The notes under the pieces: model-generated
What the model saw: the letters and a program-made list of their open reading frames with translations, nothing else
Told to the model about the DNA's origin: nothing
The model's database searches: none
Made by a program: the position numbers and the translations under genes
Shown: positions 16,107 through 50,898 of the stretch, in pieces
Numbering within the stretch: position 1 is the stretch's first letter
Layout: each line of letters begins with the position of its first letter
Source of the DNA: an uncultured Candidatus Saccharibacteria bacterium
GTDB taxonomy: Bacteria > Patescibacteriota > Minisyncoccia > Phycocordibacterales > PALSA-1337
Direction of reading: 5' to 3'
Assembly (NCBI GenBank): GCA_964459225.1
Contig: CAYWKB010000001.1
Coordinates: 354,777-418,776, forward strand
Length of the DNA: 64,000 nucleotides

Positions 16107-17252
16107 ATGAATGAGACAGAAATGACTAAAAAACCCCTTAAAATAATGATTTTATCATTAGCTTATTATCCTAACTATATAGGTGGGGCAGAGGTAGCTA
16201 TAAAAGAAATAACAGATAGGGTATCTGATATTGAATTTCATATGATTACTTTAGGTGAATCGAGACAAATTGGAAATATAAAAATATTTGGTATTTTAGG
16301 GAAACTTAATTTCATTAACAAAATACTCTATCCTTTTATTTCATTTATTAAATTATCTTTATTAAATAAAAAAAATAATTATGATTTGATATGGCCAATG
16401 ATGGCAAGTTATGCAGGCTTTTCAGCTATGTTATTTAAAGCTTTTAATAAAAATAGTAAAGTACTATTAACAATACAAGAAGGTGAAAATTTTGAGAGAA
16501 GAAAAGGAATATTTTATCCATTTTTCAGGGAGATTTTTGAAAGTGCAGATTATATACAAGTTATTTCTAATTTCCTCAAAACTTGGTCAATTGAAATGGG
16601 CGCCTCATGTCCTATCGAGGTAATTCCAAATGGTGTTGATATTAAATATTTTTCAAATAAGATTTCTGATACAGAATTAAATGATTTAAAGTTTAAATTA
16701 AATAAAAGAGATGAAGATGTGTTTTTAATTACTACAAGTAGATTAGTAAATAAAAATGCTGTGGAAGATATTATTTCATCATTACAATTTTTACCATCAA
16801 ATATTAAATTATTAATATTGGGAGATGGAGAACTTAAAAACAAATTAATTGATCAGGTCAGTAAAATGAAATTAAATAATAGAGTTTCATTTTTGGGACA
16901 TATAGATAGAAAGGAATTACCAAAATACTTGCAGATTAGTGATATTTTTGTTCGTCCATCTATAAGTGAGGGTTTTGGTATTTCATATATTGAGGCAATG
17001 GCTTGTAATATTCCAGTAATAGCAACTCAAGTTGGTGGTATTGTTGATTTTATAAAAGATAGAGAAACAGGAATATTTTGTCAGGTTAATAATCCAAAAG
17101 ATATAAGTGATAAAGTAAAAGAGTTAGTTGAGAATACTCAATTAAAAAACACTATTATCGAGAACGCTTTTAATCTAGTAAAAAATAAATATGATTGGTC
17201 AAAAGTATCAAATGATATGAAAGATTTATTTATAAAGGTGTCAAGTAAATAG
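16107..17252 (+). CDS. Glycosyltransferase family 4 (GT-B, retaining)
   Basis: C-terminal E-x7-E motif region EGFGISYIEAMACNIPVIATQVGG. Confidence 0.8.
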   Translation: MNETEMTKKPLKIMILSLAYYPNYIGGAEVAIKEITDRVSDIEFHMITLGESRQIGNIKIFGILGKLNFINKILYPFISFIKLSLLNKKNNYDLIWPMMASYAGFSAMLFKAFNKNSKVLLTIQEGENFERRKGIFYPFFREIFESADYIQVISNFLKTWSIEMGASCPIEVIPNGVDIKYFSNKISDTELNDLKFKLNKRDEDVFLITTSRLVNKNAVEDIISSLQFLPSNIKLLILGDGELKNKLIDQVSKMKLNNRVSFLGHIDRKELPKYLQISDIFVRPSISEGFGISYIEAMACNIPVIATQVGGIVDFIKDRETGIFCQVNNPKDISDKVKELVENTQLKNTIIENAFNLVKNKYDWSKVSNDMKDLFIKVSSK

Positions 17253-17302
17253 ATCAATAACTAAAGATTACAAAAGAGTTAAAATATGCTAATATTTTAC
17301 CT

Positions 17303-18322
17303 ATGAAAATACTGATTTCAACTGGTATATACCCACCTGATATTGGTGGTCCCGCACAGTATGCAAGAAATTTGTATGAAACCTGGAAAGGTGAGGGTCA
17401 TGATGTAAAAGTAGCCGCATATAGATGGGAAAGGGCTTTTCCTACATTTTTAAGGCATTTTTTATTTTTTACTAAAATAATTAGAAAAGGATGGAATGCT
17501 GATTTGATATTAGTACTTGATACATGGAGTGCGGCAGTACCTACAATGTATGCATGTAAATTAATGAGAAAAAAATACATAATACGTACTGGTGGTGATT
17601 TCCTATGGGAAAGTTATACCGAAAGAACAGGCGAATTGGTTTTGTTTAAAGATTTTTATTCTACTGCATTAAATAAATTATCAAAAAAAGAAAAGATAGT
17701 TTATAAATTTGGTGGTGAAGCACTTAGAAATGCTTCACTTATAATATTTAGTACTGAGTGGCAAAAAAATATTTTTGAAAAAGCATATAGATTAAATAAA
17801 AATAAAAATTACATAGTTGAAAATCATTGCGGTGAAAGGGAAGAACAAATAGAGCCAGAAAATAGGGTTTTTGTTGCTGGGACAAGAGACTTAGTCTGGA
17901 AAAATCTAAATACACTTAAGAGTGCATTTAAAATAGCACAAGGAAGAGTAATAGAAAAAGGATTTGAATCAATAGAATTCGATACAACTAAAGCGGTATA
18001 TGACAATTTCCTTGAAAGAATGCGAAGATCTTATGCTGTGATACTTACTTCAATTGGTGATATAAGTCCAAATATGATATTTGATGCAATTAAAGTTGGA
18101 ACACCATTTATCTTAACAAAAGAAAATGGAATAACCGAAAGAGTTAAAGATTGTGCAATATTTGTCGATCCAATGAATGAAAAAGATATCTCAGATAAAA
18201 TAACATGGTTATCTGATCCAAATAATCGCAAAATTCAAGCCGATAAAATTAAAAAATTTACATGGGTTCATACATGGAAAGATATAGCAAAAGAAATTAT
18301 TACATTGTATAAAAAGATATAA
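17303..18322 (+). CDS. Glycosyltransferase, GT4-like (divergent)
   Basis: N-terminal ILISTGIYPPDIGGPAQYARNL is GT4 N-domain-like. The C-terminal domain is weakly conserved. Confidence 0.5.
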   Translation: MKILISTGIYPPDIGGPAQYARNLYETWKGEGHDVKVAAYRWERAFPTFLRHFLFFTKIIRKGWNADLILVLDTWSAAVPTMYACKLMRKKYIIRTGGDFLWESYTERTGELVLFKDFYSTALNKLSKKEKIVYKFGGEALRNASLIIFSTEWQKNIFEKAYRLNKNKNYIVENHCGEREEQIEPENRVFVAGTRDLVWKNLNTLKSAFKIAQGRVIEKGFESIEFDTTKAVYDNFLERMRRSYAVILTSIGDISPNMIFDAIKVGTPFILTKENGITERVKDCAIFVDPMNEKDISDKITWLSDPNNRKIQADKIKKFTWVHTWKDIAKEIITLYKKI

Positions 18323-18323
18323 T

Positions 18324-19385
18324 ATGATTGTACCCAATAATAAAATACAATATAAAACAGATTACGATAATTACTCTGATTATAAGGCAATTATGATATC
18401 AACTGACAGAATGATATTTAATGAAAGAAGTGCTGTAAGAAAAAGAATGATTGAATACAGTAAATCATATAAAGAGCTACATATTATAATTTTTTCAAAA
18501 AAAACACTAAAAAATCCGTCAGAAATTAAGATTTCAGACAATTGCTATGTTTACTCCACAGATTCAATTACTAGATTTTCTTATATAAATAATGCATTTA
18601 AAATTGGTAAAAAAATACTTAAGAGCTTCGATATAAATGAAAAAGTACTAATTACTTGTCAGGATCCATTTGAAACTGGATTAGCGGGGCGTAAAATAGC
18701 CAGTTTAAGACAAAATACTCATTTATTATTGCAAATACATACAGATTTATTTAGTCCATATTTTACTAAACATTCAATATTAAATCGCATTAGACTTTCA
18801 ATAGCCAGAAATACTTTAAGAGATGCTCAAACTGTAAGGGTGGTTTCAAGAAAAATAGCTGACTCACTTGTTTTGAGGGGAATTCCTGCGGATGATATTG
18901 TGCTTAAACCTATTGAAATAGCTAATTATAGTAATGATTTGAATCCAAGTTTTAATTTAAGGGATAAGTATAAGGAATTTAAAAAAATAATTTTAATTGT
19001 AAGTAGATTAGAATCAGAAAAAAATATAGACATGGCGATTAGAGCATTTTCGATTGTAAATAAAACTTCAAAAGATACTGCACTTGTTATAGTCGGATCA
19101 GGTAGTAAAATGAATTCTTTGAAAAAGATGTCTAGGAAATTTGGCTTGGAAAATTGCGTAAAATTTGAAGGTTGGCAAAATGATACTTTTTCATATTATA
19201 AAGTAGCCGATATTGTACTTGTAACATCTTGGTATGAAGGATATGGAATGGTCCTTAAGGAAGCAGCACAATTAGGTAAAAAGATAATATCTACCGATGT
19301 TGGTATTGCACAAGATATAGGTGCAGAGATTGTGGATTGGAATGAAAAAGATATTTCAAGAGCATTACTAAATAATTTAAATTAA
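18324..19385 (+). CDS. Glycosyltransferase family 4
   Basis: LVTSWYEGYGMVLKEAAQLGKKIISTDVG. Confidence 0.7.
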   Translation: MIVPNNKIQYKTDYDNYSDYKAIMISTDRMIFNERSAVRKRMIEYSKSYKELHIIIFSKKTLKNPSEIKISDNCYVYSTDSITRFSYINNAFKIGKKILKSFDINEKVLITCQDPFETGLAGRKIASLRQNTHLLLQIHTDLFSPYFTKHSILNRIRLSIARNTLRDAQTVRVVSRKIADSLVLRGIPADDIVLKPIEIANYSNDLNPSFNLRDKYKEFKKIILIVSRLESEKNIDMAIRAFSIVNKTSKDTALVIVGSGSKMNSLKKMSRKFGLENCVKFEGWQNDTFSYYKVADIVLVTSWYEGYGMVLKEAAQLGKKIISTDVGIAQDIGAEIVDWNEKDISRALLNNLN

Positions 19386-20075
19386 ATGAATTCAGATATT
19401 ATTAAAAGATTTAATAAAGTCAAAGTCTCTAGAACCTTTCTTAATATATTAGAGATTTATAATTTTAGTAATAAAAAAGTATTAGATATTGGATGTGGTT
19501 ATGGTGAGTATTTGAAGCTTTTCGGTACAAATAGTCAAGGTATAACAACTACAGATGATGAGGTTCGATATGGTAGTGAAAATAATATAAATATAGTTAA
19601 AGGTAATATTGAGGAGATTAATAATATGATAGGTCTAGGTAAATTTGAAGCCATATGGGCAAATAATCTATTTGAACATCTATCATCACCACATGTTTTT
19701 TTAATAAACTTAAAATCAATATCAACGCCTGACACAAATTTGATACTGGGAGTACCTGTTGTACCTAAAATTGTAAATTTGATGAAAATATCTAAATTTA
19801 GAGGTGCACTTGCGTCAAATCATATAGGTTTTTATACAAAAGACACGTTAAAACTAACAGTTAAGTATGCGGGATGGAAAGTTATTGAGATAAGACCATT
19901 TATATTTAAGATAAAAATCCTAGATTACCTTGCATCATTTTTTGCTCCTCATTTATATATTGTTGCAAAAAATGATGCTTCATTCAGGTATCCTGAAAAG
20001 AAGCAGAAAGAATGGAGGGGTGAAAAAATGTACAGTAACTTATTTAAAATAACAGAAAATGAAACTATTAATTAA
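19386..20075 (+). CDS. Class I SAM-dependent methyltransferase
   Basis: Motif I VLDIGCGYGEY. 229 aa. Confidence 0.7.
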   Translation: MNSDIIKRFNKVKVSRTFLNILEIYNFSNKKVLDIGCGYGEYLKLFGTNSQGITTTDDEVRYGSENNINIVKGNIEEINNMIGLGKFEAIWANNLFEHLSSPHVFLINLKSISTPDTNLILGVPVVPKIVNLMKISKFRGALASNHIGFYTKDTLKLTVKYAGWKVIEIRPFIFKIKILDYLASFFAPHLYIVAKNDASFRYPEKKQKEWRGEKMYSNLFKITENETIN

Positions 20076-21531
20076 ATACATTATTTCAGGTGGTACTGCG
20101 GCTATTGTTGATTTATCGATTTTGCATTATTTGGATGTTAGAGGATTTCATCATATTGTAAGTGTAAATATAGCATTTTTAATTGCATTTATTGTTAGTT
20201 TTTCATTTCAAAAATACTGGACATTTTCGGATTCAAAAAGTTATGAAGTACATAAGCAATTAAGGGATTATTTTATAGTATCAGTTATAAATGTCTTTCT
20301 TAATAATTTGATTATACAGTTTATTATTAAAATAAATTTAGTATCTGAAATACCAATACTTAGGGAAATCGTATGGGCGCAAATTATATCGTCTGCAATT
20401 ATAGCCGTTGAGTCTTTTGTGATTTATAGATTTTTTATTTTCAAAAAATCAACTAACAATTTGAATAATGGTTCAAATAAAAAAGGTATTTTGATTATTA
20501 CACAAAAAGTTGATAAAGATGATTCAATATTAGGATTTTTCCATGATTGGATAATGGAATTCTCAAAACAATATAATAATGTCATAGTTATTTGTTTGCA
20601 AAAAGGAAATTATGATTTGCCTAAAAATGTCGAAATATTAAGTATGGAAAAGGATAAAAATCCTAATAAATTTAAGTATATTTATTTACTTAATAAATTT
20701 GCATTTGAAAATAGAAATAAATATGATTACGTATTTTGCCATATGTCACCACTCTATGTTATTTCTGGTTTTGTGATATGGAAGATATTGCATAAAAAAA
20801 TCTCAATGTGGTATGTTCATAGAAATGTTGATTTAAAACTTAAAATTGCTAACTTACTTTCTGATTATATTTTTTCTTCTACAAAAGAAGGCTACAGAAT
20901 AAATACTAAAAAAGTTAAATATCTTGGGCAAGCGATTTTGGTAAATAAATTTCCATATTTAAAACACAAAATCCTTGATAAAAATACTAATATCAATATA
21001 TTAACAGTGGGTAGAATCACAAAAATCAAAAATTTAGATTATCTCATTAATACAATTAAGATACTTAAAGATAAAAATTATAATGTAAATTTAAATATTA
21101 TTGGAGAAGCAAAAATATCAAGTGATATAGAGTATTATAATGAATTAAAAAATCAAATTTCAAAACTAGGTCTGAATAGCAATATTAATTTTATAGGTTC
21201 AGTTAAATATGATGAATTAGCACATTACTATAATATTAACGATATATTTGTTAATTTAGCGCCTAGTGGTGGTCAAGATAAGGCGGTACTTGAAGCTATG
21301 TCATCTGGTATTCCAACCTTTGTTGCTAATACTGGATTTAAGGACTTTTATGGTGAATTTGCCTCAGATATGATATTTGAGTTAAATAATGTTGTGAGTT
21401 TATCAGATAAAATTGTGCAATATATAGATCAAGATAATCAAATACAAATAACTGAAATTATAAATAAAAATATAATTCAAAAGGCAGATTTATCTATTTT
21501 GATAAGTAATATCAGTAATGAATTAAAATAG
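20059..21531 (+). CDS. GtrA-like 4-TM domain fused to a GT4 glycosyltransferase
   Basis: N-terminal ~130 aa has 4 TM segments with the GtrA pattern (GGTAAIVDL...FSFQKYWTF). The C-terminus is GT4 (GGQDKAVLEAMSSGIPTFV). Confidence 0.65.
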   Translation: MKLLIKYIISGGTAAIVDLSILHYLDVRGFHHIVSVNIAFLIAFIVSFSFQKYWTFSDSKSYEVHKQLRDYFIVSVINVFLNNLIIQFIIKINLVSEIPILREIVWAQIISSAIIAVESFVIYRFFIFKKSTNNLNNGSNKKGILIITQKVDKDDSILGFFHDWIMEFSKQYNNVIVICLQKGNYDLPKNVEILSMEKDKNPNKFKYIYLLNKFAFENRNKYDYVFCHMSPLYVISGFVIWKILHKKISMWYVHRNVDLKLKIANLLSDYIFSSTKEGYRINTKKVKYLGQAILVNKFPYLKHKILDKNTNINILTVGRITKIKNLDYLINTIKILKDKNYNVNLNIIGEAKISSDIEYYNELKNQISKLGLNSNINFIGSVKYDELAHYYNINDIFVNLAPSGGQDKAVLEAMSSGIPTFVANTGFKDFYGEFASDMIFELNNVVSLSDKIVQYIDQDNQIQITEIINKNIIQKADLSILISNISNELK

Positions 21532-21533
21532 GT

Positions 21534-22994
21534 ATGGATTACAAAAACAGTCATTTAAAATATTTATTATTAGTACCAGTAGTTATTTTATTGTTTTATA
21601 CATTTACTAATTTAACCGAAAGTCCTGCTACTTGGATGGATGAGGGTATTATTGTACAGACGGCAAGGAATTATTCTGTATCAGGTTTTTCTGGTTTAAG
21701 GGTCGATCCAGAAAATGTGGTTTCTGCTGGCTATGTTACAACAAGTTATCCAGTAACGATGCCAATTGCTACGGTTTTTAATATATTTGGAATATCTCTT
21801 TTTAATGCGAGAATGGTTATGGCTATTTTTATTCTGATTCTTGTATTTTTTGTTTATAAAAATAATAAAAAATATTTAGAAAATGATTACTATTTACTAG
21901 CATTATCACTAATATTATTGGTGTCATTTCCACCATTATATGGGCATGGCAAAAACGTTTTAGGTGAAGTTCCTGGCATGGCTCTACTGTTTATCTCAGT
22001 TTATCTTTTTGATAAACTTATTTCTAATCACGATGACAAGGATATTTCAAAATATAAACAATATTCACTATTATTCCTATCCTCATTATTTTTTGGATTA
22101 GTTTTTGTGACAAAGCCTATTTTTATTATTTTGATTCCCGCTATCTTTATTACATTTTTTATTAAAAATAGATCAAACTTATTAAGTTTATTTGATAGGA
22201 AAAATGTTTCGCTTTATGTCATGTCTTTGATTGCTTTTTTTATACCTGTGCTTTTTTGGATAAAATTTCAATTTCATGGGGAGGGACTTGCCTATATGCT
22301 ATCTATATATGTTAATCCACAAAGTAATAGTTTAGAAAGCAACATAATCATTAATATTAAAAGATTTTTTACTGAATCACAGCCAATATACACATTATTG
22401 TTAATGGTAATTTGGACAATAGCAATTATTAAAAATAAATTCAATAAAATTAAAATAGGTAGTACTCAATTATTTTTATATATATTTTCACTACTGATAC
22501 TTGTTGCATATATAAGGACAACTGGATATTACAGATACTTTTTTATTGCAGAATTCATCGCTTTAACTTTCTTTATTTCAAATCTCAAATGCCTATTTAA
22601 AAATAAGATAATTATTTATTTTATTGCGATACCACTTATCTTGTATCAAATTTATAATTTAAATTATTCGAGTTGGGTTTCAAAATCAATTGATAATTCA
22701 CAGAGTGAAGATTTACAATTATTACTTTCAAATATATCAGATAAAAATGAGATCTTTGTGTACCAAGCGCCAGAAATAGTGACATTTATTAAAGGTGAAA
22801 ACTATTCTCAATATTTGCAAATCACATCAAGTATCCAGGTTGGTAGCACAAGTTTAACTAGGCTGGCCGAAAAAAAGCCTGAACTAATAGTCACAAACAG
22901 TATGTATAATGATGTTGTGTACAAAATCGTCGGTGATGCATATGAGGGCTATGCAAGTATAGGAAAATATAGTTTTATAAGAAAAAAGCATTGA
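21534..22994 (+). CDS. GT-C fold polytopic membrane glycosyltransferase (ArnT/PMT_2-like, polyprenyl-phosphate-sugar dependent)
   Basis: ~11 predicted TM helices. The first extracytoplasmic loop carries WMDEGIIVQTARNY, a DE/Y motif characteristic of the ArnT/PMT_2 family. Confidence 0.55.
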   Translation: MDYKNSHLKYLLLVPVVILLFYTFTNLTESPATWMDEGIIVQTARNYSVSGFSGLRVDPENVVSAGYVTTSYPVTMPIATVFNIFGISLFNARMVMAIFILILVFFVYKNNKKYLENDYYLLALSLILLVSFPPLYGHGKNVLGEVPGMALLFISVYLFDKLISNHDDKDISKYKQYSLLFLSSLFFGLVFVTKPIFIILIPAIFITFFIKNRSNLLSLFDRKNVSLYVMSLIAFFIPVLFWIKFQFHGEGLAYMLSIYVNPQSNSLESNIIINIKRFFTESQPIYTLLLMVIWTIAIIKNKFNKIKIGSTQLFLYIFSLLILVAYIRTTGYYRYFFIAEFIALTFFISNLKCLFKNKIIIYFIAIPLILYQIYNLNYSSWVSKSIDNSQSEDLQLLLSNISDKNEIFVYQAPEIVTFIKGENYSQYLQITSSIQVGSTSLTRLAEKKPELIVTNSMYNDVVYKIVGDAYEGYASIGKYSFIRKKH

Positions 22995-23017
22995 TTTTCT
23001 GGTATTTCTGTTAGAAT

Positions 23018-25749: not shown

Positions 25750-25763
25750 TATAGTAAATAAAT

Positions 25764-28667: not shown

Positions 28668-28671
28668 AAAA

Positions 28672-34391: not shown

Positions 34392-34392
34392 A

Positions 34393-38024: not shown

Positions 38025-38026
38025 AA

Positions 38027-38842: not shown

Positions 38843-38859
38843 TTGTTACGTTAATTGTC

Positions 38860-40665: not shown

Positions 40666-40724
40666 ATAATTTTTTTAAGCTAAGTATAGTATATTTTCTT
40701 TTAAAATGATACCATGTAAAAACC

Positions 40725-42035: not shown

Positions 42036-42071
42036 TATGTTGATCAATTATAATAAATTAAATAAAATAAA

Positions 42072-42878
42072 ATGAAATCAGTCATAAAATCTTATCTCAT
42101 AAAATTATTCTTCACTTTAGGTTATAAAGAAGCTAAAAATGATGGTATATTGACTACGTTTAAAAATATTGTATTAACTAAATCAGGAAGGGAAAATGGT
42201 CCAGCAAGAGAAAAATGGATTCAGGATAAAATTAATGAATTAAATAAGGGTGAGAGCATATTAGATGCCGGAGCTGGAGAATTGAAGTATAAACCATTTT
42301 GTGGTCATCTAAAGTACACTAGTCAAGATTTTGGTGGTTATGATGGTGTTGGAACAGGGGAGGGGGTGCAAATGGGTAATTGGGATAATTCAAAATTAGA
42401 TATTGTATCTGATATAGTCAAAATACCTGTACCAGATTCGTCATTTGATAACATATTATGTGTTGAAGTTTTTGAGCATATATCTGAACCAGCACTAGCG
42501 GTAAAAGAATTTTCTAGAATAATTAAGAAGGGTGGAAAAGTTATAATTACAGCACCATTTTGTTCATTAAACCATTTTGCTCCATATTATTATGCAAATG
42601 GATATAGTAAATATTGGTATGAAAAAATCTTATCTCAGTATGGGTTTGAAATAGAAGAAATAAAATTGAACGGTAATTATTTCATGTACTTAGCACAAGA
42701 GATATCATATATTAAAGAAAGAATGTTAAAATATTCTAAAGTAAACTTATTAATCTGGTCTATATTTAAGATATCACAATTGATAATGTTACAGACACTA
42801 AGACTGATGTCTAAAAACGATACCGGTTCTAGTGAATTATTATGTTTTGGGGTTTTTGTTTTGGCAAGGAAAAAATAA
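42072..42878 (+). CDS. Class I SAM-dependent methyltransferase
   Basis: ILDAGAGELKY and LCVEVFEHI. Confidence 0.7.
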   Translation: MKSVIKSYLIKLFFTLGYKEAKNDGILTTFKNIVLTKSGRENGPAREKWIQDKINELNKGESILDAGAGELKYKPFCGHLKYTSQDFGGYDGVGTGEGVQMGNWDNSKLDIVSDIVKIPVPDSSFDNILCVEVFEHISEPALAVKEFSRIIKKGGKVIITAPFCSLNHFAPYYYANGYSKYWYEKILSQYGFEIEEIKLNGNYFMYLAQEISYIKERMLKYSKVNLLIWSIFKISQLIMLQTLRLMSKNDTGSSELLCFGVFVLARKK

Positions 42879-42886
42879 GATGCACA

Positions 42887-44131
42887 ATGAGTTTAAAAAA
42901 TAAATACATAAAATCTTTTTTGTATAAATATAATATGTTAAAACATAGTGTATTTTCTTTTTTAGGAGAATATATTATTTATTATGAAATATTGTTTCTG
43001 TTGAATAGTTTATACTATAAAATTTCCTCAAAATTTTATGGGACAGATGATGAAAATACCTTTAGTGAGATTAAGAGTGTAGCAATTGTGTATTCAAAAA
43101 AACATTTTAACCCTAAAAATAATGATTACTCTGGAATAAAATTACAGTATTCTGCCTCTAGTATTGCCGAGAGAATATACTCCGTATTTAAGAATAATAA
43201 TATTAATATTTATTACTATGATCATAGTGAAATTATTGATAAATTACCTAAGGTAGATATGGTAATAGGTATAGTTAGTGAAAATTATTTAAGATTAGTT
43301 AAAAATAACCCCAAGTCTAAAAAAATTCTCTTTTTAGTTAATTCACATCCATTGTATAGGCTTAAGGCTCTAATTAATGAAAGCAAATTATTGAATAAAG
43401 TTTTTCCTTATTCTGAATATGTTTCTCCATTATTATTTCTTAAATCTATTAAGTATACAGATTATTTTGTAATGATAGGTAATGATTTTGTCAGAGAAAC
43501 CTTTATAAAATATAGAATACCTAAAAATTCTATTACATTATTAAATACTGGTATTAATGATTTTTTATATCCCGATAGTTCAAAGAGACCAAAAGATAAA
43601 ATTAGAATTGCCTATGTTGGCAGTCACCTCGCAATACGTAAGGGATTATTTAGGGTAATGCAAGTCTGGGATAAACTTAATAGTGATATTGTAAATAGAG
43701 ATAAATACGAATTAATTATACTTGGTGGTGTCGATAAGTTCAAAAGTGAATTAGAAAGATTTATCTCTAAAAATAGAAATGTAAAGTATTATGGATGGAT
43801 TGAGTCAAATACTGAGCAATATAGGGAACTGTTGCAATCATCACATATAGGAATAAATTTATCCATAGAAGAAGGGCAGGTAGGATGTGTTATTGATGAA
43901 ATGTCTTGTGGGTTAATCCCCATTATAACTATGGAGAGTGGAATAGGTATAATAAATGGTAAGGATGGGTATATAGTAAAACATGATGATATAGAGTGTA
44001 TTTGTAATATTATATCTTCTCTCAATGAACAAAAACTTAGGGATAGTATTGAAAGTAATTTGTCCAAATATCTGAATATGCATCATAATTGGAGTGATTT
44101 TAACAAGGGAATAGAAAAACTATTGCGGTAA
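42887..44131 (+). CDS. Glycosyltransferase, GT4-like
   Basis: C-terminal EEGQVGCVIDEMSCGLIPIIT (E-x7-E). The start is taken at the internal Met to avoid a 37-nt overlap. Confidence 0.55.
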   Translation: MSLKNKYIKSFLYKYNMLKHSVFSFLGEYIIYYEILFLLNSLYYKISSKFYGTDDENTFSEIKSVAIVYSKKHFNPKNNDYSGIKLQYSASSIAERIYSVFKNNNINIYYYDHSEIIDKLPKVDMVIGIVSENYLRLVKNNPKSKKILFLVNSHPLYRLKALINESKLLNKVFPYSEYVSPLLFLKSIKYTDYFVMIGNDFVRETFIKYRIPKNSITLLNTGINDFLYPDSSKRPKDKIRIAYVGSHLAIRKGLFRVMQVWDKLNSDIVNRDKYELIILGGVDKFKSELERFISKNRNVKYYGWIESNTEQYRELLQSSHIGINLSIEEGQVGCVIDEMSCGLIPIITMESGIGIINGKDGYIVKHDDIECICNIISSLNEQKLRDSIESNLSKYLNMHHNWSDFNKGIEKLLR

Positions 44132-44141
44132 AAATCAATAA

Positions 44142-45125
44142 TTACTTAGCAGATTTAGATTTTTTACTATTTTTTATTTGTTCTGAAATCCAATTATATG
44201 TTTTTTCAATACCTTTTTCCAATTTAAAATTTGGTGCCCATTTTAATTTATTTTTAATTAGATTATTATCTGAATTTCTACCTCTTACACCAGTTGGGCC
44301 TTTAATATATTTAATATTTATCTTTTTACCACTTACTTTTTTTGCAATTTCTACTAATTGATTAATTGTCACCATTTCATCTGAGCCTATATTAACAGGT
44401 CCAGAAAAATTAGATTCCATAAGTCTTCTTATTCCTTCAAGACACTCATCAATATACAAGAATGATCTTGTTTGTTTACCATCACCCCATATTTCTATGG
44501 TTCCATTGTCTTTTGTCTCAGCGACCTTTCTGCATATTGCTGCAGGTGCTTTTTCTTTACCACCTGTCCATGTGCCCTCAGGTCCAAATATATTATGAAA
44601 ACGTGCAATTCTAACTTTAACTCCATAATTTTTCTGGAATGACAAAAACATTCTTTCACTAAATAACTTTTCCCAACCATATTCGCTATCTGGTGCTGCA
44701 GGGTATGCTGATGATTCCTCACAATTTGGATTGTTAGGATCTTTTTGATTATGTTCTGGATATATACATGCAGATGATGAATAAAATATCTTATTAATGC
44801 CTTTCTTAACTGCAATACTAGCTACATTGAGATTGATCGTCGCAGAGTTGTGCATTATATCTGCATCATGCTCACCAGTAAAGATATAACCAGCTCCTCC
44901 CATATCAGCTGCTAATTGATATATTTCATCAATACTCGGGTCAATCACTAGATTACACACGGCATAATCTCTTAAGTCACCTATAATAAATTCATCAGCT
45001 TGATTTATTGAGTATTCTGGATATTTAACATCTACCCCTCTGACCCAATAGCCCTCTTTCTTTAATCTATTTACTAAGTGATGTCCAATAAAACCTCCTG
45101 CTCCAAGTACAAGCGCTTTTTTCAT
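44142..45125 (-). CDS. NAD-dependent nucleotide-sugar epimerase/dehydratase (extended SDR)
   Basis: ALVLGAGGFIGHHL and the YGWEK (YxxxK) catalytic motif. Confidence 0.8.
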   Translation of the reverse strand: MKKALVLGAGGFIGHHLVNRLKKEGYWVRGVDVKYPEYSINQADEFIIGDLRDYAVCNLVIDPSIDEIYQLAADMGGAGYIFTGEHDADIMHNSATINLNVASIAVKKGINKIFYSSSACIYPEHNQKDPNNPNCEESSAYPAAPDSEYGWEKLFSERMFLSFQKNYGVKVRIARFHNIFGPEGTWTGGKEKAPAAICRKVAETKDNGTIEIWGDGKQTRSFLYIDECLEGIRRLMESNFSGPVNIGSDEMVTINQLVEIAKKVSGKKINIKYIKGPTGVRGRNSDNNLIKNKLKWAPNFKLEKGIEKTYNWISEQIKNSKKSKSAK

Positions 45126-45194
45126 TCTTTCGATTTATTATTTATATAATGTATGATTATATCTTTTTCATTTTATATTAACAAGTTCATCAAT

Positions 45195-46211
45195 TTATTC
45201 TATACCAAAAATCATTTTTATAGATTTCTTAACGCCATTTTCTTCTGCTTTATCTATACCTAGTATTTTAAATAATTTAATTATACATATCTTTGGATAT
45301 GTAAATATAAAATCCTTAATATAGTAGGATTTTATTCTAACCGGATAAATAAATATTGATTTAAGTAAATTTTTCTTTATATTTTTATCATAATCTATTT
45401 CTGATTCTTTAATAATGATATTTTCGTCGTGCTTAATTCCTATATTAATATATTCCTTATGATCATTGCGTAGATTTAAAGCATTTTTTGATATCGATTT
45501 ACCAACATTCATTGTAGAATCCTTGGCTCTTGCCTTACCCCATCTAATATCAGAAATATAATTTATCCAGAATGCACCCGAGCGCAATTTTTTTTGTGTC
45601 CATGCTCTCATGCATAAATCCGCATCATCCATATCAGAGGGTGCATACTTTTCGTTTAGATAATTAACAGATTTCAAATGTTCAGTATTAAACGCTATTG
45701 GACCTCTGTTTATTCCGTCTCTTATGGCAAATGTTTCTCTATTAAGATTCTTCAATTCTTTTGCGATTTGGTTAACGAAGATTTTGTTGTTATCAAAATC
45801 AGTCATAGTACCGAGGTTTTGAGCTGTCCTAGCACTTACTGCAATTACGTCATTAAATTTTCTTAATGGGAAAGTAAGTCTTTTTTCCCAAGCGAATTCA
45901 TTTATTACCATATCATCTTGAAGAGTTATAAAAAAATCACTACTGACTAATTTAAAGCCTATATTGTTTGCTCTGGTTTCGTATACATTAGGAGCGTATT
46001 CAATTGTTATATTTTTTAATAATTTAGGTCTATATCTACCAATATACCTTCTAACTCTTTCCTCGGTCCTGTCACTGCATCCATCAAATACAATTACCAT
46101 GTTAAATGAAGTGGTAGTATTAATGAAAATACCATATAATACTCTCTCTATTATTTTTTCCTGATTAAAGATACTCAGAACTATATCGAGTCTATCAAGC
46201 TTTTTAAGCAT
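45195..46211 (-). CDS. Glycosyltransferase family 2-like
   Basis: IVLSIFNQEK...VIVFDGCSDRT...ITLQDDM. Confidence 0.55.
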   Translation of the reverse strand: MLKKLDRLDIVLSIFNQEKIIERVLYGIFINTTTSFNMVIVFDGCSDRTEERVRRYIGRYRPKLLKNITIEYAPNVYETRANNIGFKLVSSDFFITLQDDMVINEFAWEKRLTFPLRKFNDVIAVSARTAQNLGTMTDFDNNKIFVNQIAKELKNLNRETFAIRDGINRGPIAFNTEHLKSVNYLNEKYAPSDMDDADLCMRAWTQKKLRSGAFWINYISDIRWGKARAKDSTMNVGKSISKNALNLRNDHKEYINIGIKHDENIIIKESEIDYDKNIKKNLLKSIFIYPVRIKSYYIKDFIFTYPKICIIKLFKILGIDKAEENGVKKSIKMIFGIE

Positions 46212-46219
46212 TATTTTAT

Positions 46220-48007
46220 TTATTTACTACTAATAATTTTATGAAAATATGAATTTTCTGAAGCCCTAAGTTCACTTGGTGTTCCAGATTCTACTATATT
46301 ACCATTCCTCAATACAATTAATTTATCTGCACCCTCAACCGTAGTTGGTCTGTGCGCAATAATTATAACCGTTACATCCCCACGTAGTCTATCAATTGCC
46401 TGTTGAACCATTGTTTCTGATTCATTATCAAGAGAGCTTGTGGCTTCGTCTAATATAATTATCTTAGGTTTTCTTGCTAGCACTCTTGCAAGAGCTATTC
46501 TCTGTCTTTGTCCACCAGATATCTCCATACCTCTTTCGCCAACATGTGATTTAAATTTATTTGGAAGGGAATTTATAAAATCATAAATATTCGCAATTTT
46601 TGTGGCATTGATCATGTCTTCTTCACTAATATTAGTATTATGAAGCTTAATATTATTTTCAATAGTATCATTTATTAGAAAAACATCCTGTGAGACGTAG
46701 CCTATGTTATTTCGCCAAACGTCCTTCCTAATATCTGAAATATTTATTTCTCCGATTGATATACTACCTGATTCAGGTTCAATTAGTTTTAATATCAAAT
46801 CTACAATAGTTGTTTTACCGGAACCAGAAGGGCCGATAATACCAGTAATCTTTCCATGATCAATTCTCATGTTTATGTTATTCAGTGTATTATCTTTCCC
46901 ATCATATTTAAAATACAGGTCTTTTATGATTATATCTGCCTTAAAATCTATATCACTTATATTTCCATCATTTTCTTGGTTCTGTATAGCTTTAGCCTCA
47001 TAATCAAATGCTGTTTTTAGGAAAGGGTATAATGAATTAATATTTTGTATCCTAGCTTGTCCATCTTGTATATATGTAAAAATCTTATTTATTGCATAAA
47101 CTATCACAGCAAATGACGCAAAATTAAAGTCAGTTAATTTATATGAAAATATAAATAATCCTATAATCAATAAAACACTTAATGGTTGAGTTACCACATA
47201 TGTAAGACTGGTTAAAACAGAAGTCTTTATTTCGATGTTTTTTAAATCCTCAAAAAACGATGTACCGTGCTTGTACACCTCTGATTCAAGGTGCATTGCT
47301 TTAATTGTCTTCATTCCAATCATACTTTCATTGATATGATTGGCTACCTTTTTTAATATATCTGCACTCTGATGTGACACAATTCTTACCCTATATACTA
47401 ATGGTTTGAAGGCTAAAAAAAATATTCCGCCCATTGAAATTGTTATACCTATAACAATTGGAGAAATGTTAAATGCAATTACTACATAAATAATAGTATT
47501 AATCATAAGAATAACTGTACTACTAGTGTATGAAAGCAGGGCACTATAAGTGTTTATGTCTGTCATCAAGACTTTTTCGAGATAACCGATCTTTTGCTTT
47601 GATAAATAGGTCCAATTTGAGTTTAGGGTAAGTTTGAAAAGTTTTGATCTAGTCTTTTTAATATAATCATTTTTTATTCTATCTGTTATATAATTGGTTA
47701 GAAATACCATTAATGATTTACCTATAAACAAAAGCGCGATTATTATTAAAAGATATTTAAGTTCGTATGGTAGCCCAATATAATTAAAAATATTTTCAGT
47801 GAATTTAGATATAGAATCTGTTGTCTGATTTTGGTCCTTAACTACAAATGAAAACAAAGGGATTATACTGTTGATACCAATACCTTCAAAAAGCCCCCCT
47901 AAGAAACTGACGATTATTAATACTATAATCCTTGTCTTATATGTTCCAAAAGCTCTCCAGAATATTTTTAATGTAAACATTAAACGACTCTCCTTGTTGT
48001 TTTTCAT
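46220..48007 (-). CDS. ABC exporter, fused permease-ATPase (MsbA/PglK-like; candidate lipid-linked glycan flippase)
   Basis: 6-TM N-terminal domain. NBD with GPSGSGKTT, LSGGQRQRIALAR and IIILDEATSSLD. Confidence 0.85.
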   Translation of the reverse strand: MKNNKESRLMFTLKIFWRAFGTYKTRIIVLIIVSFLGGLFEGIGINSIIPLFSFVVKDQNQTTDSISKFTENIFNYIGLPYELKYLLIIIALLFIGKSLMVFLTNYITDRIKNDYIKKTRSKLFKLTLNSNWTYLSKQKIGYLEKVLMTDINTYSALLSYTSSTVILMINTIIYVVIAFNISPIVIGITISMGGIFFLAFKPLVYRVRIVSHQSADILKKVANHINESMIGMKTIKAMHLESEVYKHGTSFFEDLKNIEIKTSVLTSLTYVVTQPLSVLLIIGLFIFSYKLTDFNFASFAVIVYAINKIFTYIQDGQARIQNINSLYPFLKTAFDYEAKAIQNQENDGNISDIDFKADIIIKDLYFKYDGKDNTLNNINMRIDHGKITGIIGPSGSGKTTIVDLILKLIEPESGSISIGEINISDIRKDVWRNNIGYVSQDVFLINDTIENNIKLHNTNISEEDMINATKIANIYDFINSLPNKFKSHVGERGMEISGGQRQRIALARVLARKPKIIILDEATSSLDNESETMVQQAIDRLRGDVTVIIIAHRPTTVEGADKLIVLRNGNIVESGTPSELRASENSYFHKIISSK

Positions 48008-48113
48008 ATTTATTATATTATAATATAACCCAAAATTGACTTTTATTCAAGACTAAAAATTGATAAATAATAAAGTATTTTTTTAAATAATTCGTAAATA
48101 ATTACAAAAATAT

Positions 48114-48608
48114 ATGAAGCCTGCTAAAATCGTCACTTTCGAAGAATTTTCAAGAATTAAGAAAAATTTAGGTAAAATAGTTTGTACTTCTGGTGGCTTC
48201 GATCCTATCCATCCTGGTCATGTATCTTGCATCTTTGAATCAAAGAAATATGGTGACACACTAGTGGTTATTGTGAATGGTGATACTTTTTTGAAAAATA
48301 AGAAAGGGAAGCATTTTATGGACTTGAATACAAGATGCCATATTGTATCTTATATTAAAGGCGTTGATTATGTTATCCCATTTGAAATTGAAAATGATCA
48401 AACTGTTTGTGTTGCATTAGAGAGGATTAAGCCGAATGTGTTTACCAAGGGTGGAGATAGAATAAATGAAAAAACAATACCTGAATGGTCTATTTGTAAT
48501 AAAAATAAAATAAAAGTTATATCTGGGGTTGGATTTGATAAGAAATGGAGTAGTTCTGACCTACTTAAAGATTGGATAGAATACAATAATACTCTTTCTG
48601 TAAAGTAG
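48114..48608 (+). CDS. Cytidylyltransferase-family nucleotidyltransferase (TagD / RfaE domain II-like)
   Basis: TSGGFDPIHPGH (HxGH motif). 164 aa. Confidence 0.7.
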   Translation: MKPAKIVTFEEFSRIKKNLGKIVCTSGGFDPIHPGHVSCIFESKKYGDTLVVIVNGDTFLKNKKGKHFMDLNTRCHIVSYIKGVDYVIPFEIENDQTVCVALERIKPNVFTKGGDRINEKTIPEWSICNKNKIKVISGVGFDKKWSSSDLLKDWIEYNNTLSVK

Positions 48609-48642
48609 CAATTACTTACATGTTTATGATAAACTCATATTC

Positions 48643-50898
48643 ATGAATAACAATATAAATACAGTTTTGAAGTATGCGGTTATTATTGGGCTTTTTATTA
48701 TACCTTTTACTCCGCTTTATATAGCTAACACTTTATTTTTCCCGTTCATTGCTGGTAAGGCATTTATGTTTAGGGTAATAGTTGAAATTGTATTTGCATT
48801 GTGGCTTATACTTTTGCTAAGAGAAAGGGGTACAAGTACAGCTGGTACAGACAGGAGTGTTGCTCCAAGAATAAATTCACTCACAGTTACTGTTACTGTA
48901 TTTACTCTAGTTATCTTTATCGCCGATATGTTTGGCTTAAACTTCATAAGAAGTATTTGGTCAAATTATGAAAGAATGGAAGGATTTATAACTATATCTC
49001 ATTTATGGTTGTATTATATTGTTGCTACTAGTATGTTTGGTGAAGGTGAATACGCAAAGAAAAACTGGAAAGTATTTTTGAATATCATATTGACTGCAGG
49101 ATTCTTTACAGCAATTTATGGATTATTCCAATATTTTGGTAAGGCAGATATTCATCAAGGTTCATCAAGAATAGACGCGTCTCTCGGTAACTCTGCATAC
49201 ATGGCGGTTTATATGCTTATAAATGCATTTATCGCACTATACCTGGCAATAGTATCATTTAAAAATAAGTCTCTGATAGCATTATATTCAGTACTATTTT
49301 CTTTGTATTCATTTTTACTATTTCAAACAGCAACAAGAGGTACAATACTAGGTTGGATTGCCTCAGTTTTGGTAATTTGTGCAATTTATTCAGTATTTGG
49401 AAGAAAGTCTAAGGGTCAATCAAATGTATCAAGAGTTATCTCAGGTTCAGTAATAGTAATTGTAATCATCTCAGGTATTGCATTCTACTTTAATAGAGAT
49501 TCACAATTTATCAAAAATAATTCAGTTCTAGCACGTTTGGCAACTATATCTATTTCAGATACAAAGACTCAAGCAAGAGGATTTATTTGGCCAATGGCAG
49601 TAAAGGGAGTTATGGAAAGCCCAAAGACAATAATATTGGGTGTAGGACAAGAAAATTTCAATTATATTTTCAACAAAAATTACAATCCACTAATGTGGAA
49701 GCATGAACAATGGTTTGATAGAGCACACAGTGTGTTTTTGGACTGGTTAGTTGCTGGAGGTGTATTGGGACTTATTGCATATTTGTCACTCTATGTATTA
49801 TCACTTGTATACATATTAAAAAGCGATTTAACTATTGGACAAAAGTCAGTTTTGATAGGACTTATTACGGGATATGGAATACATAATATATTCGTATTCG
49901 ATAATCAAACAAGTTATATCATGTTCTTTTCTCTTCTTGCTTATGTACATTCGTTTAGAAAAGGCAAAATCAATAAAGTATTCCTAAATAAAGATAAAGG
50001 TTTGACTGAAGATTATATTACCGTTAGAGATTATGTCTGTATTCCAGTTGTTGTAATAGTATTTATTGCTGCGCAGTATTTTATAAATGTACGCGCTTTA
50101 CAGGCTAACAAAGCAATAGTTAACAATCTAATATTATGTAATGGGGGTGGCAAAAATCTTACAGTTAAAAATCTTGAAATAGTATTTAAAATGGATCAAA
50201 CTGTTGCAAATCAAGAGGCTAGAGAGCAACTTATGTCATGTATATCTGGAATAATTAATGGAGGAGATTCACAACAAAGAAAGGCAGAATTTTATGTATT
50301 AGCAAATAAAGAAATAGAAAAGCAAATAGCAACAACACCAAATGATGCAAGAATATATATTATTGCTGGAAGCTTCTATAATACAATAGGGGATTATAAT
50401 AAAGCTCTACCATTACTCGAAAAAGCACGTCAATTATCTCCAAGTAAACAAACAATAGCTTTTGAATTAGCGTTAAATTATATAAATACTGGAAAAAGAA
50501 AAGAAGCAGTTGAATTAACAAAGAGTACTTATGAATTAGCTAAGGAAAATGATTCAGCTAAGGTTGCATATATAATTTCACTTATATCAAATAATCAAGA
50601 ATCAATTGCAAAAACAGAGTTTAAAGATGATAAAGAGATATTTAAAGATCCAAGAGTTATAAATGCATATCTTGCAAATAAACAATACGCTAAAGCGATT
50701 GATTTATATAAAGAAATATTAAAGTCTAATCCGGATGATCAAAATGTATATTCTGCTCTAGCCTCAGCATATCTTATGGATAAACAAGATTACATGGCCA
50801 TTCAAACTCTTAAAGACGCTGCGGTTAAGTTTCCAATTATAAAGACTCAAATAGATTCAATAATTAAACAAATTCAAGAAGGAAAATTTAATCGATAA
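48643..50898 (+). CDS. O-antigen ligase/polymerase-family (Wzy_C) polytopic membrane protein with C-terminal TPR repeats; candidate O-oligosaccharyltransferase
   Basis: ~12 TM helices with Wzy_C-like topology. The C-terminal ~250 aa form soluble TPR-like repeats (ALPLLEKARQLSP..., AYLANKQYAKAIDLYKEILKSNPDD...). Confidence 0.55.
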   Translation: MNNNINTVLKYAVIIGLFIIPFTPLYIANTLFFPFIAGKAFMFRVIVEIVFALWLILLLRERGTSTAGTDRSVAPRINSLTVTVTVFTLVIFIADMFGLNFIRSIWSNYERMEGFITISHLWLYYIVATSMFGEGEYAKKNWKVFLNIILTAGFFTAIYGLFQYFGKADIHQGSSRIDASLGNSAYMAVYMLINAFIALYLAIVSFKNKSLIALYSVLFSLYSFLLFQTATRGTILGWIASVLVICAIYSVFGRKSKGQSNVSRVISGSVIVIVIISGIAFYFNRDSQFIKNNSVLARLATISISDTKTQARGFIWPMAVKGVMESPKTIILGVGQENFNYIFNKNYNPLMWKHEQWFDRAHSVFLDWLVAGGVLGLIAYLSLYVLSLVYILKSDLTIGQKSVLIGLITGYGIHNIFVFDNQTSYIMFFSLLAYVHSFRKGKINKVFLNKDKGLTEDYITVRDYVCIPVVVIVFIAAQYFINVRALQANKAIVNNLILCNGGGKNLTVKNLEIVFKMDQTVANQEAREQLMSCISGIINGGDSQQRKAEFYVLANKEIEKQIATTPNDARIYIIAGSFYNTIGDYNKALPLLEKARQLSPSKQTIAFELALNYINTGKRKEAVELTKSTYELAKENDSAKVAYIISLISNNQESIAKTEFKDDKEIFKDPRVINAYLANKQYAKAIDLYKEILKSNPDDQNVYSALASAYLMDKQDYMAIQTLKDAAVKFPIIKTQIDSIIKQIQEGKFNR

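Follow-up and report, generated by a model that had tools for sequence, protein, structure and literature searches.

The block at positions 16107-50898 of the window (the whole 64,000-nucleotide stretch of contig CAYWKB010000001.1 analysed here) is this genome's version of a lineage-wide glycan locus with conserved ends, rather than the one-off supercluster proposed by a first-pass annotation. It is read here, with modest confidence, as a Paceibacteria-type surface-glycan locus that is organised like an O-antigen or protein-glycosylation locus. Coordinates refer to the plus strand unless marked as minus. The left anchor is a VirD4/TraG-like ATPase gene (14342-16102; Pfam TrwB_AAD_bind/T4SS-DNA_transf), itself not a glycan gene, and the right anchor encodes a 751-residue protein with a Wzy_C domain, a WaaL fold and a C-terminal TPR domain (48643-50898; hereafter Wzy_C-TPR). 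The nearest homologues of both anchor proteins belong to metagenome-assembled genomes labelled Patescibacteria group, Candidatus Paceibacterota/Paceibacteria, Taylorbacteria, Nomurabacteria or Parcubacteria, which supports the earlier assignment of the locus to a genome of the candidate phyla radiation (CPR; Patescibacteria/Paceibacteria). The observations comprise the domain and fold identities of the encoded proteins, synteny with related loci, the pattern of conservation along the island and the swapping of its exporter.

All 31 open reading frames (ORFs) of the block are glycan-related by Pfam, homology or fold. The window contains 68 ORFs of at least 100 residues; those in the block and its flanks were all run against Pfam, and selected ORFs were also scanned against NCBIfam. 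About 18 glycosyltransferases (GTs) had been predicted, and 16 are firmly supported by Pfam, one by fold and one by weak homology. Nine belong to GT4 (starting at 16107, 17303, 18324, 20059, 24607, 28672, 32030, 33153 and 42935, with 17303 below the gathering score) and four to GT2 (23018, 37065 on the minus strand, 40725, and 45195 on the minus strand), the first of these being fused to a class I methyltransferase; GT11 (38027, minus), an Exostosin/GT47-like protein (27648) and a GT-C protein of the PMT_2 family (21534) are single members. The eight predicted methyltransferase domains were also recovered by Pfam, six of class I (19386, the C-terminal half of 23018, 26750, 31398, 35395 and 42072) and two of the FkbM type (38881, and 39763 on the minus strand), so that the profile search of each ORF recommended at the outset upholds both the GT and the methyltransferase calls. 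The remainder consists of a GMC oxidoreductase, two SDR proteins, a cytidylyl/adenylyl-transferase, a fused ABC exporter and Wzy_C-TPR, every one as originally called (Pfam, NCBIfam). Coding density is 98.8%. The distance between the anchors, 32,541 bp, is identical in an independent public assembly and the block is therefore not an assembly chimera. At about 35 kb it takes up about 4% of a genome of about 0.88 Mb, a size taken from relatives' chromosomes and near-complete contigs (0.86-0.88 Mb), and its description as a major genomic investment is justified. By Pfam and a repeat search, the interior of the island is free of non-glycan genes, repeats and mobile elements. Scans of the whole window for tRNAs and Rfam families, and a repeat search of 14000-52000, gave no tRNA, RNA family, IS-like repeat or long duplication at the island borders; the repeat matches obtained in 14000-52000 were AT-rich and at chance level.

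The neighbourhood of the Wzy_C-TPR gene was compared in 80 species and several metagenome contigs, with ORFs labelled by homology to the window's proteins and key labels checked against Pfam. The upstream side of the gene is always a glycan island, and its content differs. Gene content and order, which the first-pass annotation had wished to see compared with related CPR genomes, give conserved ends around middle genes and an exporter that have been replaced. The order VirD4-like gene, GT4_a, GT4_b, GT4_c is the same in L085, L087 and L088 (related loci are numbered in this way throughout). GT4_a (16107-17252; Glycos_transf_1 146 bits) is 50-80% identical in relatives at the same position, and its best PDB matches are BshA, PimB', PglA and PimA. 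GT4_b (17303-18322), a divergent GT-B-like protein whose Pfam GT4 matches lie below the gathering score, is the best-conserved gene of the island, at 78-83% identity in L085, L087 and L088, despite the weakest Pfam score; DX7D replaces its EX7E motif, and it has no PDB sequence match. GT4_c (18324-19385; Glycos_transf_1 91 bits) completes this conserved left module and is 52-63% identical in relatives. In the closest relative (L089) the flanks are 68-96% identical and the VirD4-like protein 86%. The left module is kept at 50-83% identity, and in the closest relative the right part of the island has been replaced by genes for Glyphos_transf, methyltransferases, a CMP-sugar synthetase, a radical SAM protein, NeuB and Wzx. 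Other relatives have three Glyphos_transf genes, DegT aminotransferases, or a rhamnosyl O-methyltransferase with Wzm/Wzt. The stretch between the two anchor genes, counted from the last base of the VirD4-like gene up to Wzy_C-TPR, measures 32.5 kb here and is shorter in relatives: about 29.0 kb for CAZBLC010000001.1, about 22.2 kb for the closest relative and about 9 kb for L057. Shared pieces of the variable part include the nucleotidyltransferase (72% in L017), SDR2 (72% in L010) and SDR1 (68% in L015), while for most other variable genes the 10 kb stretches sampled from relatives gave no match above 40% identity.

Judged by gene content between relatives, the mosaic character of the locus is real. 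The earlier proposal of mosaic assembly thus survives through the replacement of gene content, and not on its original basis of strand switches, nor on composition. GC content is lower in the island than in the flanks (0.280 against 0.316, p = 5e-5), but GC3 is the same in both (0.200 and 0.201, p = 0.98), so that no mosaicism appears in the composition profile and a recent foreign origin by composition is rejected. Recent tandem duplication of GT4 or methyltransferase genes is rejected likewise, as paralogues within the window are at most 34% identical. The first of two reported minus-strand sub-islands stands, except that it holds a plus-strand gene (38881-39777), and the minus strand also carries the GMC gene (29771-31342). 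The locus is probably a composite: a GT4 core that is conserved, a Gtr-like module, and a variable part to which the exporter belongs.

Exporters were sought within the 10 kb upstream of Wzy_C-TPR in 60 loci where that gene is full-length and its upstream sequence reaches 5 kb or more. Wzx was found in 22, Wzm/Wzt in 19, both in 4, a fused ABC protein in 6 and none in 9; an exporter is thus present in 51 of the 60, usually adjoining Wzy_C-TPR. On a neighbour-joining tree of Wzy_C-TPR there are about 29 changes of exporter state over 61 tips (the 60 loci and the window), and only 24 of the 61 tips share their exporter type with the nearest Wzy_C-TPR neighbour, rough figures that depend on classification by our own profiles and on the counting of 'none' and 'both' as states. 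The window's own exporter is a fused protein of transmembrane and nucleotide-binding domains, of the MsbA/PglK/HepA type (46220-48007, minus; ABC_membrane and ABC_tran). This half-transporter lies within the glycan cluster, next to the nucleotidyltransferase and Wzy_C-TPR genes, and is proposed as the flippase for a lipid-linked glycan. Its NCBIfam scores are 324 bits for HepA (cut-off 725), 288 for MsbA (602) and 212.5 for PglK (1000), all sub-equivalog. Orthologues that are 59-71% identical adjoin Wzy_C-TPR in L019, L020 and L060, and a block of the methyltransferase MT_d, the glycosyltransferase GT4_h and the ABC protein is common to the window and L020 (64%, 51% and 71% identity, respectively), with less close versions in L060 and L019. 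No classical Wzm/Wzt pair was found in the window; about 19 relatives have one at the equivalent position, among them L012, in which ABC2_membrane and ABC_tran are accompanied by a weak Wzt_C match. Likewise, there is no Polysacc_synt match, and hence no Wzx, in the window; at least 22 relatives have Wzx beside Wzy_C-TPR. The predicted dependence on a PglK/MsbA-type ABC protein is therefore well founded, a fused exporter of that kind standing where relatives have Wzx or Wzm/Wzt. The further statement that no Wzx/Wzy pair is visible is right as to Wzx and goes too far as to Wzy, since the superfamily of Wzy_C-TPR includes Wzy polymerases.

Wzy_C-TPR scores 59.9 bits with Wzy_C (PF04932; gathering score 31.7) over residues 218-381, has at least ten hydrophobic segments and takes up the three-dimensional fold of WaaL; a phmmer search against the PDB gave no sequence match. 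Twelve WaaL-like helices are followed by a K/R-rich stretch (437-461) and a thirteenth hydrophobic helix (about 462-482). From these two features and the known topology of WaaL we infer that the TPR domain (about 508-745) is extracytoplasmic, on the same side as the catalytic loop. In an alignment of 25 orthologues the mean column identity is 57% and the invariant motifs include GxGQENFNY and WFDRAH; R298, R312, R360 and H362 (the last two in WFDRAH), as well as GxGQENFNY, are invariant and lie between helices 9 and 10. Among the candidates scored there are 2160 homologues at E <=1e-10, the best 120 of which are almost all about 720-790 residues long (3 are shorter) and 45-70% identical; identity across the 80 species loci is 35-60%, and at least 591 GTDB species representatives encode a relative. 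The same architecture is known elsewhere, as WsaB and WsfB are predicted O-oligosaccharyltransferases with Wzy_C, and WsfB and PglL have a C-terminal TPR motif (PMC2943079). In L056, L058 and L073 two adjacent ORFs match Wzy_C-TPR, which may be split genes, frameshifts or tandem copies.

Wzy_C-TPR could itself be a Wzy-type polymerase or a polymerase-ligase hybrid, in which case the product would be a capsule, exopolysaccharide or wall-linked polysaccharide that is released or attached by another enzyme such as LCP. The Wzy_C family definition covers polymerases and ligases alike, the 7tpj entry is itself described as 'polymerase/ligase', and about half of the Wzx-type islands have no other polytopic Wzy candidate within 10 kb, in a search that is not decisive. 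Wzy polymerases, however, are repeat-unit-specific and highly divergent, whereas WaaL/PglL-type enzymes work with any export route and any glycan, and chains delivered by Wzm/Wzt or fused ABC exporters are already finished and need no polymerase. Here, by genomic context, one orthologue conserved at the identities given above stands beside unrelated glycan gene sets and all three exporter classes, which argues for a ligase or oligosaccharyltransferase and makes a polymerase improbable.

For the locus as a whole we lean towards a mechanism in which a polyprenyl carrier holds a methylated glycan during its assembly, the ABC protein flips it and the WaaL-like enzyme moves it en bloc to an acceptor outside the membrane, probably a protein; each biochemical step, the carrier, the acceptor and the product are predicted from the encoded proteins. 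The soluble GT4, GT2, GT11, GT47-like and GT13-like transferases would build a hetero-oligosaccharide or polysaccharide on polyprenyl-(pyro)phosphate at the inner face of the membrane, with GT4_a-b-c making a lineage-conserved inner part and the other genes a strain-specific outer part. Two SDRs, the GMC oxidase and the nucleotidyltransferase would supply unusual sugars, and the eight methyltransferase domains would methylate the glycan. An initiating phosphoglycosyltransferase would be encoded elsewhere in the genome, and the carrier chemistry is assumed because the window has no initiating transferase. The finished lipid-linked glycan would be flipped by the fused ABC half-transporter, in the manner of PglK, Wzk or HepA, and Wzy_C-TPR would then pass it en bloc to an acceptor outside the cytoplasm, for which surface proteins such as pilins or S-layer-type proteins are the likeliest candidates, in the way of WsfB and PglL. 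A protein acceptor is favoured because the architecture resembles that of WsfB and PglL, with a TPR domain that faces outwards. Meanwhile, the GtrA-GT4 fusion, GT-C protein and GT2 resembling dolichol-phosphate-mannose synthase (DPMS) may form a polyprenyl-phosphate-sugar route by which sugars are added outside, and this route probably also feeds the PMT encoded in the right flank. The released carrier would be recycled by the DedA(VTT)-PAP2 fusion encoded at 51665-52951 (VTT_dom 66 bits, PAP2 64 bits). Such fusions are interpreted in the literature as a phosphatase for undecaprenyl-pyrophosphate combined with a flippase for undecaprenyl-phosphate (PMC10127716), and the protein here probably dephosphorylates undecaprenyl-pyrophosphate and flips undecaprenyl-phosphate back; such recycling fits en bloc transfer outside the membrane.

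Several points weigh against this scheme. The ABC protein lies below the equivalog cut-offs of PglK, MsbA and HepA, and the Wzy_C family holds polymerases as well; the invariant arginine and histidine residues of Wzy_C-TPR are no more than candidates for its catalytic residues. No initiating phosphoglycosyltransferase (Bac_transf, Glycos_transf_4) occurs among the window's ORFs of at least 100 residues, where Wzx and Wzm/Wzt are missing too, nor does one belong to the families that recur often in relatives' islands (148 ORFs). No S-layer or pilin acceptor gene was seen among the window's ORFs, including the small ORFs at 4600-9200, and the linkage to an S-layer structural gene that marks the S-layer glycosylation (slg) clusters is likewise missing from the window. 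A type IV pilus operon stands beside the VirD4-like anchor only in some relatives. Finally, the case is computational throughout. The operon in question is complete (PilM, PilO-like, PilB, response regulator, PilT, PilC, pilin) and lies directly upstream of the VirD4-like gene at L085:899-9111 and L087:2223-9883; it was found neither in the window nor in the closest relative, and gives a weak hint of pilin glycosylation.

The acceptor could instead be a glycolipid core, and this is a serious rival to a protein, although its probability is small. GT4_a-b-c would then make a membrane glycolipid core, PimA/PimB-like or glycosyl-diacylglycerol-like, and the WaaL-fold protein would ligate the variable glycan onto it, giving a molecule similar to lipopolysaccharide (LPS) without lipid A. 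The layout of the island, with its conserved left module, variable middle, exporter and conserved WaaL-fold ligase, mirrors that of core, O-antigen and waaL genes; the PDB neighbours of GT4_a include PimA, PimB' and WaaG; the DPMS-like synthase and GT-C protein resemble the actinobacterial lipomannan route; and no protein acceptor gene is seen in the window. However, the GT4 matches are generic, BshA and PglA scoring at least as high as the Pim enzymes, and the chemistry of a lipid anchor is not readable from sequence. TPR domains usually bind proteins. Furthermore, a C-terminal TPR has been reported for the protein-directed O-oligosaccharyltransferases WsfB and PglL (PMC2943079). Both kinds of acceptor find a place in a wider formulation, possible if on the unlikely side, in which the Paceibacteria have a serotype-like surface locus of an as yet undescribed kind: an outward-TPR WaaL-fold ligase would accept glycans from Wzx, Wzm/Wzt or PglK-like ABC exporters, the acceptor, conserved across the lineage, would be either the glycolipid core made by the GT4 module (LPS-like, no lipid A) or many surface proteins, and the specificity of these ultra-small symbionts for hosts (attachment) or phages would follow from rapid turnover of the island.

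It is also doubtful that the island is only a set of independent systems side by side, namely a housekeeping GT4 module, a Gtr-like/PMT supply for O-mannosylation and a separate ABC-exported methylated glycan, with Wzy_C-TPR serving one of them or none. Points in favour of this are the sharply unequal conservation of different parts of the island, nine strand switches, the orthology of the DPMS-like GT2 with the PMT-associated GT2 of relatives, and the fact that MT_d, GT4_h and the ABC gene travel as a unit. Against this, relatives retain both anchors with nothing but glycan genes between them, over 9-29 kb, the exporter stays beside Wzy_C-TPR through many swaps, and the island is free of non-glycan genes, repeats and mobile elements.

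Returning to the favoured mechanism of en bloc transfer to a protein, the closest functional analogue of its ABC-flippase and WaaL logic is the WecA/Wzk/WaaL pathway of Helicobacter pylori. There, the LPS O-antigen is made by WecA, cytoplasmic GTs including the GT11 member FutC, the PglK-like ABC flippase Wzk and WaaL (PMC2841628, PMC9553153); the Wzk and WaaL route is established (PMC2841628) and has been reported to glycosylate proteins too (PMC9553153). The two would share a glycan completed on its carrier, flipping by a fused ABC half-transporter in place of Wzx or Wzm/Wzt, transfer by a WaaL-fold enzyme and a GT11 member. They differ in that the present locus belongs to a monoderm-type CPR bacterium with no lipid A genes in view and no WecA in the window, its transferase has a large C-terminal TPR domain, it encodes eight methyltransferases and an added Gtr-like module, and its ABC protein is nearer to the HepA and MsbA profiles than to PglK.

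In monoderm context and in the possession of a Wzy_C-TPR transferase, nothing known is closer than the slg clusters of Geobacillus stearothermophilus and Paenibacillus alvei, which encode WsaP, GTs, the methyltransferase-GT fusion WsaE, Wzm/Wzt and the O-oligosaccharyltransferases WsaB/WsfB (PMC2943079). In common with the window these are low-GC, packed GT clusters in monoderms, with a methyltransferase-GT fusion, a tagD-like nucleotidyltransferase (in the P. alvei cluster) and, at the cluster edge, an O-oligosaccharyltransferase with Wzy_C and, in WsfB, a C-terminal TPR, the last being a likeness of domain architecture. Here, in contrast, the exporter is a fused ABC protein and not Wzm/Wzt, which relatives do use, and neither an S-layer gene nor an initiating transferase lies in the window. 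As a set of GT and methyltransferase genes for extending a conserved core with a species-specific glycan, the 27 kb general protein O-glycosylation cluster of Tannerella forsythia (PMC6120980) comes closest. It too is large and strain-variable in content, adds a species-specific outer glycan to a conserved core and has nonulosonic-acid genes, as do the window's closest relatives, but the Bacteroidetes core is encoded elsewhere, whereas here the conserved module is in the island, and its flippase is Wzx.

The enterobacterial rfb and pneumococcal cps loci have hypervariable gene sets between conserved flanking genes. Similarly, the VirD4-like and Wzy_C-TPR anchors bracket replaceable sets of GTs and export modules, with the differences that here the ligase is itself an anchor, three exporter classes alternate in one lineage and synonymous-site composition equals that of the flanks. 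Three-component glycosylation systems of the GtrA/GtrB/GtrV and CsbB/GtcA/YfhO kinds, and the actinobacterial Ppm1 and PMT/GT-C systems, are paralleled by a DPMS/GtrB-like GT2, a GtrA-family domain and a GT-C protein in three adjacent genes (20059-24610), with a GT39 PMT in the flank. Unlike those systems, the GT2 here has no membrane helices and continues into a Zn-ribbon-like motif and a methyltransferase, and the GtrA domain is fused to a GT4.

Every component of the locus belongs to a known family, and the biochemistry follows a principle already described; assignments remain at family level for PglK, MsbA, HepA, Gmd and Fcl, each of which fails at equivalog level. A literature search, incomplete in coverage and so giving absence of evidence only, found no paper on glycan islands, O-antigen ligases or WaaL-like proteins, or glycosylation in CPR/Patescibacteria. 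The suggestion that the system is undescribed is thus sustained as regards such loci in CPR, and a lineage-wide framework with interchangeable exporters is, as far as found, undescribed too. CPR/Patescibacteria have tiny genomes and are mostly uncultured, and the question on which the locus bears is how they present themselves to hosts and phages. A fixed framework of VirD4-like anchor, GT4 module, WaaL-like TPR transferase, response regulator and DedA-PAP2 is maintained while the glycan genes and even the exporter are exchanged, and about 4% of the genome would be spent on one heavily methylated glycan. The Wzy_C-TPR and ABC proteins are concrete candidates for experiment, and the island could be used as a marker to type strains and to follow how the surface varies among CPR populations in the environment.

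Next to the left module lie a class I S-adenosylmethionine-dependent methyltransferase gene (MT_a, 19386-20075; Methyltransf_23 51.6 bits) and the three genes of the Gtr-like module. The first of the three encodes a GtrA-domain and GT4 fusion (20059-21531; GtrA_DPMS_TM 64 bits over residues 6-128, Glycos_transf_1 80 bits), of which L088 has a 52% identical orthologue, and the second a polytopic, PMT_2/ArnT-like GT-C protein (21534-22994; PMT_2 34.3 bits, gathering score 26.1) with at least 8 hydrophobic segments. The third product (23018-24610) joins a DPMS/ArnC/GtrB-like GT2 (Glycos_transf_2 100 bits), a CxxC pair and a class I methyltransferase (Methyltransf_23 94 bits). Residues 5-236 have as their best PDB match the Pyrococcus furiosus dolichol-P-mannose synthase 5mlz (E 1.6e-31), followed by ArnC and GtrB, which places the domain in the DPMS/ArnC/GtrB clade, and the GtrA-family and GT-C genes stand immediately upstream; the protein has no membrane helices. 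The trio would thus look like a GtrA/GtrB/GT-C (or CsbB/GtcA/YfhO) system for extracytoplasmic sugar addition. Two GT2 enzymes associated with PMT, one encoded directly upstream of it in the closest relative and one fused to it in L003, share 53-56% identity with the GT2 domain of the third product. The window's own PMT, a GT39 protein O-mannosyltransferase of the right flank (55866-57293; PMT and PMT_4TMC), has neither the directly upstream DPMS-like GT2 of L089 (15946-18056) nor the fusion of L003 (14330-16429), and because it lacks an upstream GT2 of its own the 23018 enzyme probably also supplies it.

After this trio come GT4_d (24607-25749; Glycos_transf_1 146 bits) and unk1 (25764-26750), a probable GT-B glycosyltransferase on weak homology: it has no Pfam, NCBIfam or PDB match and is 50% identical to L088:18261-19265, which carries a weak Glyco_trans_1_2 match. 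The next product is a class I methyltransferase (26750-27655; Methyltransf_23 66 bits) with an N-terminal CxxC...CxxC Zn-ribbon-like motif. Two Zn-ribbon-fused methyltransferases had been predicted, and CxxC pairs in this protein (residues 6 and 27) and in the 23018 protein (246 and 268) fit that prediction. An Exostosin/GT47-like gene (27648-28667; Exostosin_GT47 47 bits, gathering score 33.4) and GT4_e (28672-29787; Glycos_transf_1 85 bits) are followed by the GMC-family FAD oxidoreductase (29771-31342, minus; GMC_oxred_C 71 bits), whose best NCBIfam match is pyranose oxidase, far below cut-off; a role in sugar oxidation is suggested, and the sampled islands of relatives contain no homologue. 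MT_b, of class I (31398-32033; Methyltransf_11 56 bits), GT4_f (32030-33160; Glycos_transf_1 133 bits), GT4_g (33153-34391; Glycos_transf_1 121 bits), SDR1, an NDP-sugar epimerase/dehydratase (34393-35394; Epimerase 177 bits; NCBIfam GalE then RmlB, both below cut-off), and MT_c, again of class I (35395-36126; Methyltransf_12 32.4 bits, gathering score 30), come next.

The gene unk2 (36085-37083, minus) has no Pfam match and is assigned by predicted fold to the GT-A class ('HlpA-like', GT13-like fold). Its AF2 model has a pLDDT of 92.5, and the best Foldseek matches are the GT13 enzymes POMGnT1 and GnT-I (best E 7e-12); in its EDD motif E101 and D103 are invariant and D102 nearly so. With more than 7600 homologues the family is very large, and its members include proteins named 'GT family 2' or 'HlpA-like' as well as fusions to FkbM. 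The protein is 44-48% identical to cyanobacterial and Verrucomicrobia proteins in this family without a Pfam model, and the family appears to be widely exchanged.

Further along the island are GT2_a (37065-38024, minus; Glycos_transf_2 127 bits), the alpha-1,2-fucosyltransferase-family GT11 (38027-38842, minus; Glyco_transf_11 117 bits, a firm assignment) and the two FkbM methyltransferases, a (38881-39777; Methyltransf_21 88 bits) and b (39763-40665, minus; Methyltransf_21 57 bits). GT2_b (40725-42035; Glycos_transf_2 54 bits) has a PglI-like best NCBIfam match, far below cut-off. The class I methyltransferase MT_d (42072-42878; Methyltransf_11 44.5 bits) is 64% identical in L020 and 54% in L060, beside the ABC orthologue, and GT4_h (42935-44131; Glyco_trans_1_4 48 bits) is 51%, 37% and 36% identical beside the ABC orthologues of L020, L019 and L060, respectively. 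The starts at 38881 and 42935 follow the public gene call, which places them better. SDR2 (44142-45125, minus; Epimerase 145 bits) is an Fcl-like NDP-sugar epimerase/reductase with GDP-L-fucose synthase as its best NCBIfam match, and GT2_c (45195-46211, minus; Glycos_transf_2 35.4 bits, gathering score 23.3) precedes the ABC gene. A methylated, fucose-containing glycan had been predicted. Methylation is in accord with the density of methyltransferases, and it is plausible that GT11 and the Fcl-like SDR make a fucose or 6-deoxyhexose component, but no Gmd equivalog is present: SDR2 scores 110 bits with Fcl against a cut-off of 500, and SDR1 55 bits with Gmd. The cytidylyl/adenylyl-transferase beyond the ABC gene (48114-48608; CTP_transf_like 49.5 bits) is of the HldE domain II/TagD-like type (NCBIfam RfaE domain II 80 bits, TagD 47 bits, both below cut-off), and its 72% identical orthologue in L017 adjoins Wzy_C-TPR. 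A 45-nt AT-rich sequence occurs in two versions (76% alike) at 40627-40671 and 48059-48103, between the divergently transcribed pairs FkbM_b/GT2_b and ABC/nucleotidyltransferase; this may reflect a common promoter element, or chance.

Outside the island, the VirD4-like protein is unusually well conserved, with full-length identities of 65-86% for the best 120 among 8000 homologues scored. It seems to belong to the core set of these genomes and not to a mobile element; L057 has two copies. On the right, an OmpR-type response regulator gene (50888-51553, minus; Response_reg and Trans_reg_C) converges on Wzy_C-TPR with an 11 bp overlap (50888-50898). It holds the equivalent position in L003, L008, L009, L012, L013, L020, L048 and L089, at up to 70% identity where compared, and there is no histidine kinase gene in the window. 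The DedA-PAP2 fusion stands beside the response regulator in nine relatives and is absent there in the closest, L089. The downstream flank is syntenic in close relatives, with the OmpR-type response regulator, DedA-PAP2, iPGM, enolase, PMT, MFS, RNase J and SBP_bac_5, whereas that of distant relatives has MurB and SecA. To the left of the locus, about 1.5 kb (4660-6220) of slightly higher GC has only short, odd-looking ORFs (for example 5157-5606, with no Pfam match), no Rfam family and no tRNA, and a fusion of NusB and NUDIX, an unusual domain combination, is encoded at 818-1720. Finally, a PGA_cap (CapA-like) gene followed by a DUF1761 gene (9764-11182) is syntenic and 75-86% identical in the closest relative, and this pair may have another envelope-related function.

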